Made by a program: the position numbers and the translations under genes. Shown here in pieces: positions 22,304 through 46,743 of a stretch of DNA of 64,000 nt; position 1 is the first letter of the stretch, and every line of letters begins with the position of its first letter. Under the pieces are notes generated by a model. That model worked only from the letters and a program-made list of their open reading frames with translations, was not told the origin of the DNA and did not search any database. This DNA comes from a virus. The DNA is taken from the IMG/VR virus record IMGVR_UViG_3300045988_114239. The stretch is one strand, 5' to 3'.

Positions 22304-23017
22304 ATGTACATCAATTTCAGACAACTTGCAGCATCAGACATGACTCCTAATGATCTTGCTAATCTTCTTGCCATAAGACAGAAGGATTCGGTTATGATCG
22401 AAGCCATGCCGGAAGAAGATGCTGGTAGATATATAGAGCTTGGCCTGGTTGAGAAATTAAAATCAGGCGTGATGAGATTGACCAACAAAGGAACGTCTTT
22501 TGTGAATTATATAGAGACACCAGAGATGACAGACGAGGTTCTGGAAACGTTGAAGATTATGATAGGAATGTACGAATCATATTCAAAAGACATAGGTGTC
22601 AGTAGAAAAGAAGCGGAATCCAGATTATGTTGGTTTATGGGTAACACCTCATTCAAGAAAGAGGTCATACTTCAGGTAACGGAATCTTATATAGCAGAGT
22701 CAGGAGATTATACAATGAGCTTATGTAACTTCATATGGAAACCGCCTTCTCAGGCTTTTTCAGTCCATATGAACCTTAAAAATTCAAAGCTCTTTGACTT
22801 AATAGCTGAAAAATTTAAGATCGCTACCGAGCCTTATTTGGAGCCTAAGAAGAATAAGGAAATGGATTGGTTGTTTGCCGTATCTAAATTGCCTACGCCG
22901 CCGGCTAAAGGCAATCCGGATTATTTATTTACCGGAAGTTCTGAAACAGACAAAGAGAGATTGAAAAACATAAAAACATACTTATTTAACAAAATTAGAA
23001 AGCAATGGAAAAAGTAA
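22304..23017 (+). CDS. hypothetical protein, first gene of ACP/NfeD/flotillin operon
   Basis: 237-aa ORF. Its stop overlaps the ACP-like start. Confidence 0.6.
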   Translation: MYINFRQLAASDMTPNDLANLLAIRQKDSVMIEAMPEEDAGRYIELGLVEKLKSGVMRLTNKGTSFVNYIETPEMTDEVLETLKIMIGMYESYSKDIGVSRKEAESRLCWFMGNTSFKKEVILQVTESYIAESGDYTMSLCNFIWKPPSQAFSVHMNLKNSKLFDLIAEKFKIATEPYLEPKKNKEMDWLFAVSKLPTPPAKGNPDYLFTGSSETDKERLKNIKTYLFNKIRKQWKK

Positions 23018-23256
23018 GAATCAGAAAGATAATAGAGGATATAATTATTACTCAGTTTCTTAATTCGGAAATAGATATAGTTCATGAAGAGGATGTGACG
23101 TTTAAAGAACTTGGATTAGATTCTGTTGATCGAATTGAGCTTGATGTGATGGTGGAACAAAAATTCAATATTGTTATTATTGATTATGATATGGAGACCA
23201 TCAAAGATATGACTGATCTTGTTTACAAAATAATAACAGAAGGGTATGGGAAGTGA
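23005..23256 (+). CDS. Acyl-carrier-protein-like protein (LGLDSVDRIELDVMVEQKF)
   Basis: The ACP helix-II signature DSLD-x-VEL-VM with a phosphopantetheine-site Ser is reproduced as GLDSVDRIELDVMVE. Confidence 0.6.
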   Translation: MEKVRIRKIIEDIIITQFLNSEIDIVHEEDVTFKELGLDSVDRIELDVMVEQKFNIVIIDYDMETIKDMTDLVYKIITEGYGK

Positions 23257-23740
23257 CATAATTTTATGCATGGCTTTAATAGCGTCATTTGCTTTTGTTA
23301 TACAGTTTTTGTTGTCGATATTAGGATCTGATCTGGATACGGATATTGACATTGACAGTGCTTCTGATTTAAGCATGTCTTTGTCGGACATCATATCATT
23401 CAAGGGCATAACACATTTTATTCTTGGATATAGCTGGACTACCTACTTTTCGGGTTCCCATTTAGTAGGGGTTGTGATAGGGTCGTTTTTCTTTATCGTT
23501 TTGTTTTACGTATATAAGTTACTTCTTAAGTTAAAGCAAGAAATGGTGTACGAATGTCCGGAAGATTTAAATGGCAGAGAGGTGGAGATAGTGTTTAGAT
23601 CAGGGAAGAATCATTATATGGTAAATATTTCGAAAAATGGAAGACAGGAGCAAATGAGAGTAAGATGCTTGTCTGGAAAAACTTACAAAAACGGTGACAA
23701 GGTGAATATAAAATACGAAGAAGGAGAATTAAGCATCTAA
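23246..23740 (+). CDS. NfeD-like (YuaF-type) membrane protein: three TM helices plus C-terminal OB-fold beta domain
   Basis: Hydrophobic N-terminus, C-terminal GREVEIV...G..V.I...G pattern, and a position immediately upstream of an SPFH gene as in yuaF-floT. Confidence 0.6.
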   Translation: MGSDIILCMALIASFAFVIQFLLSILGSDLDTDIDIDSASDLSMSLSDIISFKGITHFILGYSWTTYFSGSHLVGVVIGSFFFIVLFYVYKLLLKLKQEMVYECPEDLNGREVEIVFRSGKNHYMVNISKNGRQEQMRVRCLSGKTYKNGDKVNIKYEEGELSI

Positions 23741-23772
23741 TTTTTTTTATCAACAATTAAATTTTAAAAGTT

Positions 23773-25473
23773 ATGACAACAATCATGTACGTGTCAGCTA
23801 TTTTAGCTGTAGTGATTATTTTGACAATCATCGGAGTCTTATCAAGGTATCGTAGATGTAAGCCTAACCAAGTCTTGGTCGTTTATGGTAAGACAGGTGG
23901 AGAGAAGAAATCGGCGAAATTATATCATGGTGGAGCAGCATTCGTGTTGCCTATTATCCAAAGCTATGATATTTTATCTATGGAGCCTATGCAAATAGAT
24001 TGTAGGCTTACCGGTGCTTTGTCATCTCAGAATATTAGAGTAGATGTGCCTACAACTATTACAGTAGCTATCAGTACAAATCCTGAAATTATGCAGAATG
24101 CAGCAGAAAGACTTTTGGGGATGGATACCGAATCTACTGAAAATCTTATTACAGACATCGTTTACGGTCAGATGCGTTTGATTATTGCCGAAATGACGAT
24201 TGAAAAACTTAATTCTGACAGGGATGAGTTTTTGGATAAGGCAAGAAAAAACATTGATAACGAACTTAATAAGTTAGGCCTTTACCTCCTAAATATCAAC
24301 ATCAGTGACATCAGAGATGAAGCCGGCTACATCATGAATCTTGGTAAAGAGGCTGAAAGCAAGGCTCTGAACGAAGCACAGGCTAATATCGAAGAACAGG
24401 AAAAGCTGGGTGCTATTAAGATTGCTGTACAACAGAAGGAAAAAGAAACGGCTGTAGCTAATACCCAAAAAGAGCAAGAGATTCAAATTGCCTATACTGA
24501 AAAAGAAAAAGAAACGGTAGTAGCTGAAACAAAGAAAGAAAAAGAAGTAGCTTTGGCTTTAACCGATAAAGAAAAACAGATCGGTGTAGCTCAAGCCGAT
24601 AGAGATAGGGCTGCGGCTATAGCAAAGACTTTGGCTGACAAGGAATCAGCGATTGCAAGATCTAAGGCAGAACTTGAGGTAAACAAAGCTGAAGCTGAAA
24701 GAATGGAAGAAGTCGGAAAGAATAAGGCTGAGGCTGATAAACAAGCAGCTATAGCAATCCAAGATTCCGAAGCTCAGATCAAGAAAGCTGAAGCTGAGAA
24801 AAACGCATCTGTGGGTTATAACAATGCCCAGAAAGAGGTTGCTATATCAGAATCAGAATTACAGGTTATCAAAGCTCAATCAGAAAAGAAGGCTGGAGAA
24901 GAGAGGGTTAAGTCGGAAGCGGCTGTAAAAACGGCAAAAGAGCTTGCTGATAAAGAAGTGGAAGAAGCTAAAGCTAAGAAGGTTCAAGCTGCGCTTAAAG
25001 CTGAAAAGATTGTGCCGGCTGAAATTCAGAAGCAGGAGGCTATGTTGCAAGCTGATGCTGAAGCTGAGAAGATCAAACGCCGGGCTGATGCCGAAGCAGC
25101 AGCACATTTGGCAAAAGCAGAAGCGGAGGCAAAAGCTATTCAGATGAAGCTGGAGGCAGAAGCCGAAGGTAAGAAAAAGTCGTTAATGGCAGAAGCCGAC
25201 GGATTTAAGGCTATGGTGGAAGCAGCAGAATCCAATCCTCAGATCGCCATCCAGTACAAGATGGTTAATCAGTGGAAAGAAATTGCTGGAGAACAGGTTA
25301 AAGCATTTGAGCACATTAATCTCGGAAATATCACGGTATTTGACGGCGGTCAGAACAGTACCGGTAATTTCCTTAACAATGTTGTCAAGACCGTCGCTCC
25401 GGCATTGGGAGTCATTGATCAGCTTCCGATTGCAGATACTTTAAAGAAATTAAAAGGAGATGACAAAAAATAA
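23773..25473 (+). CDS. SPFH/Band-7 flotillin-like protein (FloT/YqiK type) with long Ala/Glu/Lys coiled-coil
   Basis: N-terminal TM, SPFH core (QVLVVYGK...), and an extended EA-rich flotillin repeat region. 566 aa. Confidence 0.85.
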   Translation: MTTIMYVSAILAVVIILTIIGVLSRYRRCKPNQVLVVYGKTGGEKKSAKLYHGGAAFVLPIIQSYDILSMEPMQIDCRLTGALSSQNIRVDVPTTITVAISTNPEIMQNAAERLLGMDTESTENLITDIVYGQMRLIIAEMTIEKLNSDRDEFLDKARKNIDNELNKLGLYLLNINISDIRDEAGYIMNLGKEAESKALNEAQANIEEQEKLGAIKIAVQQKEKETAVANTQKEQEIQIAYTEKEKETVVAETKKEKEVALALTDKEKQIGVAQADRDRAAAIAKTLADKESAIARSKAELEVNKAEAERMEEVGKNKAEADKQAAIAIQDSEAQIKKAEAEKNASVGYNNAQKEVAISESELQVIKAQSEKKAGEERVKSEAAVKTAKELADKEVEEAKAKKVQAALKAEKIVPAEIQKQEAMLQADAEAEKIKRRADAEAAAHLAKAEAEAKAIQMKLEAEAEGKKKSLMAEADGFKAMVEAAESNPQIAIQYKMVNQWKEIAGEQVKAFEHINLGNITVFDGGQNSTGNFLNNVVKTVAPALGVIDQLPIADTLKKLKGDDKK

Positions 25474-25636
25474 ATACAATGGCCCAAGGTTACACTTGGG
25501 CCTAATTGAAGAAATAAAAGCAGCATTCATAGATTTCCTGCCTGCTGGAACAGTGATTTTAAGTGCTTTACTAATTACGATATTTTTAACATGGATTTTG
25601 GACAAGATTTAGAACCAGAAGAACTGACCAAGCATT

Positions 25637-30335: not shown

Positions 30336-30902
30336 ATGGAAAAAATGGACAATAATACTAAAAACATCCTTTATCCAAAAGGATCTATTTTTCAAACACT
30401 GAAAGATGATAAGATAGATAAAAACACTATAATATACAAAGGATCTTTAGTGACTTCAGCAACAAACATAAAAGAAAATGACAAGTTTGCTGAAGTTTAT
30501 TACAATGGAGACGCAATTATTATAGAAACAGACATTATGGAACTTATTCGTGTAGGAGATCCAGAAAAAAGTACTTCAATAAAATCAGTGAAAAATGACA
30601 TCATTGACGACAAACTACGATGGGATTTGCTTCCGATGGAAGAGATTGAAGACATTGTAAGAGTCTATCATGCCGGAGCCAAGAAATATGGGTCTAATAA
30701 TTGGCAGAATCTTGACGACGGATTTGAACGGTATCGAGCTGCAATGTTTAGACACCTAATGGAATACATGAAAGGGGAAAGAGTGGATTCCGATACAGGA
30801 TGTTTTCATCTTGCACAATGTGCATGGAACTGTATAGCTATGCTGTGGTATGACAAGCACGGAAAAGGGTTAATGCCTTTAAGTAAGGAGGAAAAGAAAT
30901 GA
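30336..30902 (+). CDS. possible phage nucleotide pyrophosphohydrolase-like protein (DUF5664-like; WDLLP...YHAGAKKYG..NW)
   Basis: Recognition of this motif is from memory and could not be verified. 188 aa. Confidence 0.3.
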   Translation: MEKMDNNTKNILYPKGSIFQTLKDDKIDKNTIIYKGSLVTSATNIKENDKFAEVYYNGDAIIIETDIMELIRVGDPEKSTSIKSVKNDIIDDKLRWDLLPMEEIEDIVRVYHAGAKKYGSNNWQNLDDGFERYRAAMFRHLMEYMKGERVDSDTGCFHLAQCAWNCIAMLWYDKHGKGLMPLSKEEKK

Positions 30903-42938: not shown

Positions 42939-43214
42939 CTATAAATTTAATATTCCGTTTTTACCAATATGTTTCTTTTCTTCTTTAGTGGGCCATTCTT
43001 TCTTGAACTTACCGTGCCACGTTCCAGGAACTACCACCAGTTCGTCCTCCTTACTATATTCAATAGCGGCACATTCAGAACAAAGAGGCTTGCCTTCATA
43101 TCCTTTTAAAGATTCATCGTAAATACGATTCTTACAAGGTCTTATAAGAGCCCAGTAACATGATGTGGCTGTATTATCTATACAGCCACATTTTGAACAT
43201 ACAAACAAACTCAT
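42939..43214 (-). CDS. Zn-ribbon protein (CSKCGC...C...CSEC)
   Basis: 91-aa ORF. Confidence 0.5.
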   Translation of the reverse strand: MSLFVCSKCGCIDNTATSCYWALIRPCKNRIYDESLKGYEGKPLCSECAAIEYSKEDELVVVPGTWHGKFKKEWPTKEEKKHIGKNGILNL

Positions 43215-44074
43215 TCCGCCATCTCCCAGTCATTAGACATAATATCATGTTCGGTTGGATTCCAATTTGATGCTACTTTTTGACCTGTATCTACCATCAA
43301 TATATTTACGTCAAACATACAGATATACTTTTTACCCCAATCGATTCTTTTTATCTTACGACCTAATTTAAGCCGTTCTAAAGCCTGTTCGAATGTCATG
43401 CCACGACGAGGCAGTTTGAGATACTTTTTAAGTCTGTCGGCAGCTTCATTTGGTGTATGGCCATCGTATTCGAAAGCGGTTTCTCTTTCAGGAACATCAA
43501 ACAAATCCCAGTATTTGCTTTCATAGTGATTAGATACCTGACCGGTAGGTAGGATCGCCATCACAATAAACCAATCATCAGAACCGAAGCATTTTTCTCC
43601 GTCGCTGTGTCTCCTTGATTTGCAAACTTCAACCTGTCCATTTCTGGCTAATAGATTAAAGAAGGCAGCGTTATACAACATGCTATACCGATACAATTCA
43701 TTGAAAGTGTGGTATCCGTCAGAGACTTCTCCCACGTCTACAGGCTTCTTGTTTTGAATACTACCCAAAATCTTCTCTACATAGAGCTGTATTTTATACA
43801 GACCCATTTCGGTGTGGCCGTATTTGTTCAAGATATTATTGACATCGTATTGTATATTAAAATCTTTTTCAAATTCTACTTCAGGATGATTAGGATAGTA
43901 GTAATCTACTGATGCTTCTAACACAGACTTGATATGCTCTACTATCCTCGTGGCATCATCATGTTTTAAGAAATTCTTGAATCCCTCAACGAATTTAATA
44001 TCTTCTTCGATTGTTGATTCGAACTCTTCTTTTGTCATTACTCTAATCACATCTTTAAAATCTTTTAATTCCAT
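43211..44074 (-). CDS. Two-domain protein with C-terminal DUF2829/Tad2-like domain (MTFEQALERLKLGRKIKRIDWGKKYI...WNPTEHDIMSNDWEM)
   Basis: The C-terminal ~65 aa match the remembered DUF2829 signature M.F.EAL..LK.GKK..R.GW ... W.P...D..A.DWE. Confidence 0.5.
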   Translation of the reverse strand: MELKDFKDVIRVMTKEEFESTIEEDIKFVEGFKNFLKHDDATRIVEHIKSVLEASVDYYYPNHPEVEFEKDFNIQYDVNNILNKYGHTEMGLYKIQLYVEKILGSIQNKKPVDVGEVSDGYHTFNELYRYSMLYNAAFFNLLARNGQVEVCKSRRHSDGEKCFGSDDWFIVMAILPTGQVSNHYESKYWDLFDVPERETAFEYDGHTPNEAADRLKKYLKLPRRGMTFEQALERLKLGRKIKRIDWGKKYICMFDVNILMVDTGQKVASNWNPTEHDIMSNDWEMAE

Positions 44075-45299: not shown

Positions 45300-46743
45300 C
45301 TGGTATTGAAAAAAATAGGTTCAGATCTTGGGTAAAGATTCGAGCCAATTTTTAACATCTTTAGGTAATTATATACAACTTTACACCACAAATACGCCAA
45401 TTTGTTTTCATATATAAATAATAATTTCTATATTTGTGTCATGAGATTAGTCGAACAACATACAATCAAGCCAAGTTCTGTTTATTACAATGAGCTTTAT
45501 GACTTATTGCATAAGTGTAAAAACTTATACAATAAAGGGTTATATGTTGTTAGACAGTATTATTTTCAATACAAGGATGATAATACTGTAAAGTATAAGT
45601 ACCTAAACTACTATTCTCTTGAAAAGAAGTTAAGAACAGAAAATGATGTTGACTATCGTGCTTTACCAGCACCGGTTGCTCAACAAGTGTTGATGATGGT
45701 TGATAGAAACTTTAAATCTTTCTTCAATCTCTTTAATAAAAAGAATAGAGGTGAGTATTCTGAGGAAGTAAGAATGCCAAGGTATCTCAACAAGGGTGGT
45801 TTGTTTCCTGCTGTTTTTGCAACAAATGCTTTTTCTCAAAAATGGATAAAACAAGGCATTGTTAAGTTACCAAAACAGTTTTCCTTTACAACAAGAACTA
45901 ACAAGCAAAATATTCAACAACTTAGATTCATTCCTAAGAATGGGTATATTGTTCTTGAAATAGTTTACAATAAGAAGGAAAAGAATCTTATGTCCGATAA
46001 TGGGAACTATCTTGGCATCGACATAGGATTGGATAATTTAGCATCTTGTGTTTCAAACACCGGTTCTTGTTTTATCATCAATGGTAGACCACTAAAGTCT
46101 ATTAACCAATATTATAACAAAAGGTTAGCATTCTTAAAATCTAAGTTAAAAGACAATAAACAGATTTCAAAACAAATAAGGTCATTAACCGACAAAAGGA
46201 ATAACAAGATCAAAGACTATCTGCATAAAGCAAGTAGAATATTGGTTAATCATGTAGTTTCCAATGGTATTAATACGATCATAATCGGTCATAACAAGTG
46301 CTGGAAACAAGAGATCAATATTGGAAAGCGTAATAATCAGAACTTTGTATCTATTCCTTTTAATTCGTTTATCAGTATGATATCGTATAAAGCTACATTA
46401 GAAGGTATTAATGTTAAGATCGTTGAAGAATCTTATACTTCAAAATGTAGCTTTTTAGATAATGAACGGATTTGCAAACATGAATCTTACAAAGGAAGAA
46501 GGATTAAACGAGGATTGTTTAAAACCTCTTCTGGTAAGACAATTAATGCTGATATCAATGGTGCTTTTAACATCATCCGTAAATCGGAAAAAGAATCCTT
46601 TGATGTAACGATGTTACCAGAAGGTAGAGGGTTTTGGTGTAACCCGGTACGAATTTCCGTATAAATGTGTATTACTTTACGCTTTTGGTGTAAAGTGGTA
46701 TATAATCACCCATTTAGGGTCTTTGTCTATTCTATCTCTCAGT
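45300..46743 (+). mobile_element. IS200/IS605-family TnpB-only (IS1341-like) element; boundaries approximate
   Basis: A lone plus-strand gene in a minus-strand block. It encodes TnpB and there is no TnpA nearby. Confidence 0.6.
45441..46664 (+). CDS. tnpB: TnpB (OrfB) RuvC-like RNA-guided endonuclease homolog: RuvC-I GIDIGLDNLA, RuvC-II IVEESYTSKCS, RuvC-III NADINGAFNI; zinc finger degenerate (only two Cys)
   Basis: All three RuvC motifs are in canonical order and spacing. The N-terminal region is typical of the OrfB_IS605 family. The start was trimmed to MRLVEQ. Confidence 0.85.
   Translation: MRLVEQHTIKPSSVYYNELYDLLHKCKNLYNKGLYVVRQYYFQYKDDNTVKYKYLNYYSLEKKLRTENDVDYRALPAPVAQQVLMMVDRNFKSFFNLFNKKNRGEYSEEVRMPRYLNKGGLFPAVFATNAFSQKWIKQGIVKLPKQFSFTTRTNKQNIQQLRFIPKNGYIVLEIVYNKKEKNLMSDNGNYLGIDIGLDNLASCVSNTGSCFIINGRPLKSINQYYNKRLAFLKSKLKDNKQISKQIRSLTDKRNNKIKDYLHKASRILVNHVVSNGINTIIIGHNKCWKQEINIGKRNNQNFVSIPFNSFISMISYKATLEGINVKIVEESYTSKCSFLDNERICKHESYKGRRIKRGLFKTSSGKTINADINGAFNIIRKSEKESFDVTMLPEGRGFWCNPVRISV

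Follow-up and report, generated by a model that had tools for sequence, protein, structure and literature searches.

Flotillins occur widely in bacteria together with NfeD partners, and the function of both is poorly understood. Genes of the SPFH2 and NfeD2 classes share operons and are transferred together (PMC2636767), and the NfeD2 class is minimally conserved in sequence while being NfeD-like in structure (Hinderhofer et al. 2009, PMC2636767). Flotillins have roles in protecting the membrane and in its fluidity, and they are under the control of sigma-W, whose regulon is switched on by several stresses, phage infection being one (PMC8581546); overproduction of flotillin stabilizes FtsH and perturbs cell division (PMC3892786). 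The QmcA-YbbJ cage consists of 26 heterodimers, NfeD having been proposed to promote SPFH oligomerization, and FloA-NfeD of Staphylococcus aureus is a holdase that stabilizes unfolded proteins under stress (PMC13086221). Here, we analyzed a viral DNA stretch of 64,000 nucleotides, IMG/VR record IMGVR_UViG_3300045988_114239 (the whole stretch is referred to as the window), in which positions 23005–25473 carry genes for an acyl carrier protein (ACP), a predicted short NfeD-like membrane protein, and a flotillin. The NfeD-flotillin pair is the core chromosomal SPFH2-NfeD2 operon of Bacteroidales, the predicted hosts, copied into a phage.

The window comes from an epsilon crAss-like phage and shares 95% identity with GenBank OR575929 (“phage csAssE-Sib”, human gut, 151 kb), and the predicted hosts of the csAssE-Sib group are Bacteroides, Parabacteroides, and Porphyromonas (PMC11054128). 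The OR575929 record already names the three products as “acyl carrier protein”, “transmembrane protein”, and “flotillin family protein”; the publication on this genome (PMC11054128) makes no mention of the ACP, transmembrane-protein, or flotillin genes. The initial annotation, made from the window sequence without database searches, had placed three genes on the plus strand, and this placement was confirmed: open reading frame 1 (ORF1; ACP, 83 aa) lies at 23005–23256, ORF2 (NfeD-like protein, 164 aa) at 23246–23740, and ORF3 (flotillin, 566 aa) at 23773–25473.

The product of ORF3 matched the Pfam Band_7/SPFH model PF01145 over aa 30–211 (E = 2.5e-25; 90 bits against a cutoff of 23.6) and the Flot domain PF15975 over aa 450–559 (E = 1.5e-9; 38.4 bits against a cutoff of 27). 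A hydrophobic N-terminal anchor was detected at aa 4–22 (Kyte-Doolittle, 19-residue window, score 2.83), and a coiled coil rich in Glu, Ala, and Lys was seen both in the translation and as GCTGAAGC-type repeats in the DNA. The match to the NCBIfam FloT model (NF058507; E = 1e-42) scored 146.9 bits, under the equivalog cutoff of 700. Judged from its domains, ORF3 is a flotillin-family protein (SPFH2) and not a FloT equivalog; the FloT/YqiK-like character that had been read from the sequence was borne out by the two domains, the anchor, and the coiled coil. Flotillin alleles ranged in length from 408 to 562 aa because the coiled coil had contracted in frame to different extents (window 24400–25100; P0122–P0168). 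In human SPFH complexes, coiled-coil length correlates with subunit number (PMC12624060).

No match to ORF2 was found in Pfam, PHROGs, NCBIfam, or PADLOC. Profile searching delineated an ORF2 family of approximately 419 representative clusters, with proteins of 160–180 aa, and the Pfam NfeD model (PF01957) matched only 3 of 62 family members (best E = 6e-5) and not the window protein. In a profile search of PDB sequences, the family profile matched YuaF (2k14) weakly (E = 0.81). The AlphaFold model of ORF2, with a predicted local distance difference test score (pLDDT) of 73 overall and of approximately 85 C-terminally, contained three N-terminal helices and a six-stranded beta-domain. The architecture is one of N-terminal transmembrane (TM) helices and a C-terminal OB-fold beta-domain resembling solved NfeD domains. 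The best PDB match of the full-length model in Foldseek was YbbJ in the QmcA-YbbJ cage (8z5g), although this match was weak (E = 0.014, TM-score ~0.3). A viral protein in BFVD that is 34% identical to ORF2 is named NfeD-like by UniProt, and the exact phage ORF2 protein is labelled “DUF1449” in public sources, which we take to be the YqiJ family. Almost invariant across the family are the acidic DxDxDxD loop that follows helix 1 and the SFKGxxHF motif that precedes helix 2; its members in RefSeq Bacteroides are annotated merely as hypothetical or transmembrane proteins. The gene is co-oriented with the SPFH gene and lies directly beside it, as expected of a short-form NfeD. Fold, architecture, and gene position, rather than Pfam, support the assignment of ORF2 as a putative short NfeD of the YuaF/YqiJ (NfeD2) type. 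The earlier YuaF-type call thus holds with respect to fold and context, but not with respect to a Pfam NfeD match of the window protein.

The cellular counterparts of the pair were located in Bacteroidales. Bacterial contigs carried, among housekeeping genes, flotillins that were 50–62% identical to the phage protein (BLAST local identity), and directly upstream of each was an unannotated 165-aa gene, the product of which was 40–42% identical to ORF2. A scan of one genome per species gave 80 loci in Bacteroides, Parabacteroides, Phocaeicola, Prevotella, and their relatives, with flotillins 62–67% identical to the phage copy. An ORF2-family gene was situated immediately upstream of the flotillin gene in 81 of the 82 bacterial loci, and the single exception has 50 bp of upstream sequence only. 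The gap between the two genes was mostly 20–26 nt in bacteria versus 32 nt in the phage, and the neighbors of the cellular orthologues included the housekeeping genes for PGI, lysyl-tRNA synthetase (LysRS), and chorismate synthase. The ORF2 family is thus an uncatalogued NfeD-like family without a Pfam model, paired with flotillin in essentially all sampled Bacteroidales genomes. Bacterial flotillins were 83–97% identical across genera, and the phage flotillins formed one separate clade approximately 68% identical to those of all host genera. This separation points to one old acquisition or to later fast evolution, and not to a recent capture. On the sequence comparisons, the pair entered the common ancestor of two epsilon crAss-like lineages in a single, ancient acquisition. 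As a separate observation, two bacterial contigs (L082, 6001–7980, 659 aa; L083, 6001–7869, 622 aa) encode flotillins with an internal duplication of the SPFH end and the coiled-coil start, which could be real or an assembly artefact.

A tblastn search of 50,697 deposited phage genomes with the flotillin returned 9 records, and the protein was full-length in only 2 of these, csAssE-Sib and Vibrio phage KIT04; there is no PHROG family for flotillin or NfeD. Phage carriage had been called unusual from the sequence alone, and these counts agree with that view, although within the phage species of the window the NfeD and flotillin genes are present on hundreds of contigs. The KIT04 flotillin (LC487410, Demerecviridae) was 28–31% identical, which indicates an independent acquisition, and neither NfeD nor ACP was recognizable by annotation or Pfam in the genes flanking it. 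INPHARED searches with the flanking exonuclease and with orf237, the upstream neighbor of the ACP gene, matched csAssE-Sib alone. Literature searches returned nothing relevant on phage-encoded flotillin or SPFH proteins and no report linking flotillin with crAss-like phages. One candidate precedent, PMC13245101, was set aside as not relevant, as it concerns a prophage integrating into the host floA gene. The pair in the phage is thus already annotated in GenBank and is not discussed in the literature found.

In the second phage lineage (L166/L167), the genes follow one another as in the window: orf237, ACP, NfeD, flotillin, and a small ORF. Between the two lineages, amino acid identity was 83% for the flotillin, 63% for NfeD, 76% for orf237, 79% for DnaB, 78% for the exonuclease, and 38% for the ACP, and synonymous sites were saturated. 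The small downstream ORF, orf50, was 34% identical, with a ratio of nonsynonymous to synonymous substitution rates (dN/dS) of approximately 0.9. For polymorphism within the lineage, the IMG/VR scans covered the best 80 loci, all from the lineage of the window; genomes were selected by an upstream anchor gene and not by the flotillin, and 76 IMG/VR loci reach the exonuclease. The corresponding within-lineage polymorphism ratio (pN/pS) was 0.046 for the flotillin, 0.074 for NfeD, 0.055 for the exonuclease, 0.031 for orf237, 0.47 for the ACP, and 0.40 for orf50. Together with the identities, these ratios indicate that the NfeD-flotillin pair is constrained like core genes and that the ACP is not. 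Estimated in this way, purifying selection on the pair is no weaker than on the replication genes. The same data bear on the view that the pair is a neutral passenger, a piece of decaying host DNA. Frequent deletions, truncations, and frameshifts would agree with such decay; however, the pair was kept in two lineages with saturated synonymous sites, the flotillin is conserved like DnaB and the exonuclease, and the within-species pN/pS is 0.05–0.07. A neutral passenger is largely refuted by these selection data, and we regard it as extremely improbable.

The flotillin gene was nevertheless often lost. Among the 76 anchor-selected IMG/VR genomes, 52 carried the full module, 20 (26%) carried one precise deletion, and 4 carried other deletions. 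The common deletion spans approximately 23744–25584 of the window (breakpoints ~23741 and ~25585) and removes the flotillin gene and most of orf50. At its junction, the NfeD stop codon is joined to the last orf50 codons via an ATTTTT microhomology (L243, L247, and L212). Alignment of these three junctions with the window placed the left breakpoint at 23738–23750, where the NfeD stop codon TAA is followed by a T-run, and the right breakpoint at 25576–25590, in the last codons of orf50 (GATATTTTTAACATGG). Flotillin-less genomes (L243, L247, L181, L212, and others) were scattered over the tree of the flanking genes, suggesting that the deletion allele recombines or recurs.

At least 24 distinct further junctions were present in metagenome assemblies, in which an N-terminal piece of NfeD is fused to the 3′ end of the flotillin gene in all frames. 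These fusions join window positions 23330–23680 to 25050–25360 (P0007–P0049; L175–L177), and 24 of 25 right endpoints fall within the last ~140 flotillin codons, the exception being P0178 at 24760. One ACP-NfeD fusion and one internal NfeD deletion were also found among the ORF2 homologues. Three of the fusions were checked at the DNA level and lay on otherwise syntenic contigs of 12–69 kb, with junctions that share no repeat and are therefore not de Bruijn-graph collapses. Assembly collapse was ruled out as the cause of the deletions by the lack of junction repeats, their occurrence in several datasets, and the long syntenic contigs. C-terminal truncations of the flotillin were common (P0162, 425 aa, 348 members; P0141, 507 aa, 172 members), and frameshifted alleles occurred too. 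Premature stops were found in 4 of 49 same-length IMG/VR flotillin copies, compared with none among 76 exonuclease and 75 orf200 copies. Both neighbors were intact (orf200, 75/75; exonuclease, 76/76), indicating that, across the region covered, the loss is peculiar to this locus. The flotillin is thus non-essential and polymorphic for presence or absence, with a deleted or broken gene in about a third of wild genomes.

NfeD and the ACP were intact in all 20 flotillin-deleted genomes, and the pN/pS of NfeD in these genomes was 0.10. One explanation of this pattern is that the phage proteins either enter into assemblies with the flotillin and NfeD of the host or titrate them, giving mixed or poisoned cages, with the phage NfeD alone being partly sufficient. 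Divergence between phage and host flotillins is concentrated in the coiled coil (47–55% identity), whereas the SPFH domain and the C-terminal oligomerization region are 79–83% identical. Co-assembly would explain both why NfeD is kept alone and why the oligomerization regions are so similar. However, recombination between full-module and flotillin-less genomes could preserve NfeD without selection in the flotillin-less background, and the fact that both partners were captured and kept suggests a self-sufficient complex. We therefore consider co-assembly with host proteins rather improbable.

The loss alleles also raise the question of a conflict module, which would act in superinfection exclusion, or would counter or be sensed by a membrane-acting host defence, the polymorphism being the trace of an arms race. 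Presence and absence on scattered backgrounds and the many independent loss-of-function alleles fit this explanation, and such patterns are typical of conflict genes. In addition, a protein with a Tad2-like anti-defence domain is encoded in the same window, and the phage group may be temperate or pseudolysogenic (PMC11054128). On the other hand, PADLOC models matched none of the ACP, NfeD, and flotillin, the cellular orthologues are core genes in a housekeeping neighborhood and not defence-island genes, literature searches yielded no SPFH-based defence of this type, and the low pN/pS of the flotillin and NfeD gives no sign of diversifying selection. The SPFH-based exclusion system suggested in the initial annotation was accordingly not supported, and a conflict module in the wider sense appears unlikely, though worth weighing.

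The ACP differs from the pair in several respects. ORF1 encodes an acidic protein that scored 26.4 bits with the Pfam PP-binding model, against a gathering cutoff of 20.8, and that matched phrog_5934, ‘acyl carrier protein’, at 2e-8; the ACP of the second phage lineage scored 32.7 bits. It matched 55 solved ACPs, with Ser40 aligned with the canonical attachment serine in a GLDS40VD motif, and the GLDSVDRIELDVMVE motif was confirmed. The ACP call thus passed the Pfam check. Scores against the NCBIfam ACP equivalogs were all far below their cutoffs, which indicates that ORF1 is a divergent ACP.

The GLDSxD motif was present in both deep phage lineages, and ACP codon 40 was TCT in 155 of 155 IMG/VR loci. 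The attachment serine is thus conserved in these sets, yet 13 of the 113 distinct 83-aa ACP variants in a large protein collection carry F, P, or Y at this position. Glu45 is replaced with K, V, or T in 13 of the 113 variants; from our own alignment, this residue is presumably E41 of Escherichia coli ACP, an acidic residue of the recognition helix. Codons 40 (23122–23124) and 45 (23137–23139) were hot spots, with 13 rare-allele observations each versus a mean of 1.6 per site (Poisson P ~1.5e-8; Bonferroni 1.3e-6), and the variants occurred on at least 10 backgrounds. There were 18 contigs with S40F and 20 with S40P, drawn from different studies and in some cases 140 kb long, and 486 members belong to the E45K cluster. 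The recurrence of S40F and S40P across studies on long contigs indicates that they are real circulating alleles, and sequencing error was ruled out as the source of the Ser40 variants. In a small sample of ten Ser-less genomes, the flotillin was intact in 5, split in 4, and deleted in 1, which is not clearly different from the background rate of disruption. The repeated replacement of the carrier serine is a peculiar finding for phage ACPs and one that can be tested at little cost. Apart from these variants, two IMG/VR genomes of the window's lineage (L049, 4217–4477; L052, 4221–4481) carry a markedly different ACP allele of 86 aa with an ELELDSLD motif; it retains the serine and hints at replacement of the allele, or recombination, in the ACP gene.

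The gene layout was compared with the three translationally coupled genes that the initial annotation had described. The ACP and NfeD genes overlap by 11 nt, but NfeD and the flotillin are separated by an AT-rich gap of 32 nt, so that only the ACP/NfeD junction truly overlaps. The chain of overlaps also extends on both sides of the three genes: the last 13 nt of orf237 (22304–23017, plus strand) overlap the start of the ACP gene, and orf50 (25460–25612, plus strand), which by its ORF and hydropathy encodes a small predicted membrane protein of 50 aa, overlaps the flotillin stop codon by 14 nt. The locus is inside a long co-directional block of replication genes, including those for a DnaB-like helicase, a PD-(D/E)XK exonuclease, and a superfamily 2 (SF2) helicase (Pfam, PHROG). 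A scan of the region found promoter-like and terminator-like sites at no more than the frequency in shuffled sequence. As the overlaps continue outward and such sites are not enriched, nothing in the sequence marks off a three-gene operon, and the proposed operon did not hold as a unit. We treat orf237 as context only. It had no match in Pfam, PHROG, or NCBIfam, its single-sequence AlphaFold2 model (pLDDT 35) was unusable, and the idea that it encodes a phosphopantetheinyl transferase (PPTase) or acyl enzyme received no support.

The three genes were also considered as one machine, in which the ACP would supply the flotillin/NfeD microdomain, or a lipid that it organizes, with an acyl or lipid group. 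The ACP/NfeD overlap, the ACP-NfeD-flotillin order kept in both phage lineages, and the membrane-related nature of both functions speak for such a unit, but adjacency in two syntenic relatives is weak evidence. No ACP-like ORF was found within 4 kb of any of the 82 cellular NfeD-flotillin loci, with the phage ACP and E. coli AcpP as queries, and no ACP was annotated or recognized by Pfam in the genes flanking the independent flotillin of KIT04. The ACP is also approximately 10 times less constrained than its neighbors, remains intact where the flotillin is deleted, and has Ser40 knock-out alleles that occur alongside intact flotillin. Furthermore, the annotation of the 151-kb reference genome, in which many genes are hypothetical, contains no PPTase, acyltransferase, acyl-ACP synthetase, or gene of fatty acid synthase (FAS), polyketide synthase (PKS), or nonribosomal peptide synthetase (NRPS) type, that is, no acyl-loading or transfer enzyme. 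The integrated ACP-NfeD-flotillin machine is the least supported of the functional readings and, in our estimation, highly unlikely. The functional triad proposed initially was not supported, in view of the cellular loci, the different evolutionary regime of the ACP, and its persistence in all flotillin-deleted genomes; the triad itself exists in two syntenic epsilon crAss-like lineages, but neither in the Bacteroidales loci nor in KIT04. The ACP is probably a phage-specific neighbor of the NfeD-flotillin pair and not part of its functional unit.

Taken together, the data incline us, by a modest degree, towards a joint reading: a host-derived, constrained, and dispensable SPFH2-NfeD2 copy re-tunes the host flotillin, and the ACP is separate and probably outside the module. 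By analogy with cellular systems, the phage NfeD and flotillin would insert into the host inner membrane during infection, and a cytoplasm-facing flotillin cage would be assembled with its NfeD partner, as in cellular SPFH-NfeD complexes. The phage cage may then add to or re-tune the host flotillin system in membrane fluidity and protection, or in the scaffolding or quality control of membrane proteins, FtsH being one example. The outcome would be a conditional fitness benefit that depends on the host strain. The orphan ACP would need modification by the host AcpS.

Several points weigh against this interpretation. The mechanism is taken entirely from homology to cellular systems, the function of which is itself loosely defined. 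The frequent loss alleles could indicate a costly gene or one that is sensed by host defence. The 11-nt ACP/NfeD overlap and the adjacency kept in both lineages may reflect co-translation and some functional link, and an ACP-using enzyme could be hidden among the ~60% of phage genes that are hypothetical. Finally, NfeD is intact and constrained without the flotillin, and the picture of a cognate pair fails unless NfeD works with the host flotillin. A more elaborate alternative treats the locus as a conflict hot spot, in which NfeD and the flotillin would plug into or remodel host flotillin cages, the ACP would act through its apo or holo state on a host target, and a host factor, either sensing these proteins or being blocked by them, would repeatedly select for flotillin loss and for Ser and Glu knock-out alleles. 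We hold this scenario to be doubtful; if true, natural populations would have performed a genetic screen that points to a membrane-linked interaction between phage and host in Bacteroidales.

The retention of a diverged host pair under strong constraint indicates that the module matters during infection of Bacteroidales, which are dominant gut bacteria. The natural polymorphism offers ready, isogenic-like comparisons, as one deletion is present in approximately a quarter of genomes and dozens of independent loss alleles circulate besides.

Other features were recorded in the window. On the minus strand, 43211–44074 encodes a 287-aa protein in which a Tad2-like (Thoeris anti-defence 2) domain (E = 2e-10) comes after a WDGH domain (E = 4e-35), and its gene is a candidate anti-defence gene. 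A TnpB-type gene with OrfB_IS605 and Cas12f1-like TNB domains is located at 45402–46664 on the plus strand, within a minus-strand block and opposed to its neighbors; the second lineage has its TnpB gene elsewhere (L166, 14180–15034), beside a NAMPT/NAPRTase gene. A protein with a dATP/dGTP diphosphohydrolase N-terminal domain (E = 3e-26) is encoded at 30336–30902 on the plus strand; enzymes of this type are used by phages that replace a canonical base. Both GC skew and AT skew flip sign at approximately 34 kb, which coincides with the switch from replication genes on the plus strand to giant structural or virion genes (2140 and 2238 aa) on the minus strand.

Comparison with known systems indicates that the locus is no new type of system. 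The closest described pairs are yuaF-floT (yuaG) of Bacillus subtilis and yqiJ-yqiK of E. coli (PMC2636767), in which a short NfeD gene likewise comes first and the flotillin gene follows 20–30 nt downstream. The proteins share the same organization, with N-terminal TM helices and a C-terminal OB-fold in NfeD, and an anchor, SPFH domain, EA-rich coiled coil, and Flot domain in the flotillin. In these pairs too, the NfeD partner is barely recognizable by sequence and the pair moves laterally as a unit. The phage pair differs in that its carrier is a virulent-type crAss-like phage and its location is inside a replication-gene block. It also forms its own clade at approximately 68% identity to the host copies, is flanked by an ACP gene and a small TM ORF, neither of which accompanies the cellular pairs, and is polymorphic in presence. 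The chromosomal pairs of Bacteroides, Parabacteroides, Phocaeicola, and Prevotella (e.g., B. thetaiotaomicron, L103) are direct homologues with the same order and spacing; unlike the phage pair, they are core genes, nearly invariant across genera (83–97%), and have no ACP neighbor. The E. coli QmcA-YbbJ cage (8z5g), to which the ORF2 model is closest in Foldseek, provides a template for NfeD on an SPFH ring, but QmcA is a stomatin-type SPFH1 protein and not a flotillin, and the weakness of the ORF2 match applies here as well. Vibrio phage KIT04 has the sole other full-length flotillin among the deposited phage genomes and differs in its low identity and in the lack of a recognizable adjoining NfeD or ACP. 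The ACP resembles the phage ACPs of PHROG 5934, which are small acidic PP-binding proteins bearing a DSxD motif and are assigned to the category of morons and auxiliary genes; it differs from them in that no accompanying acyl enzymes are annotated and in that its carrier Ser and helix-II Glu are recurrently mutated.

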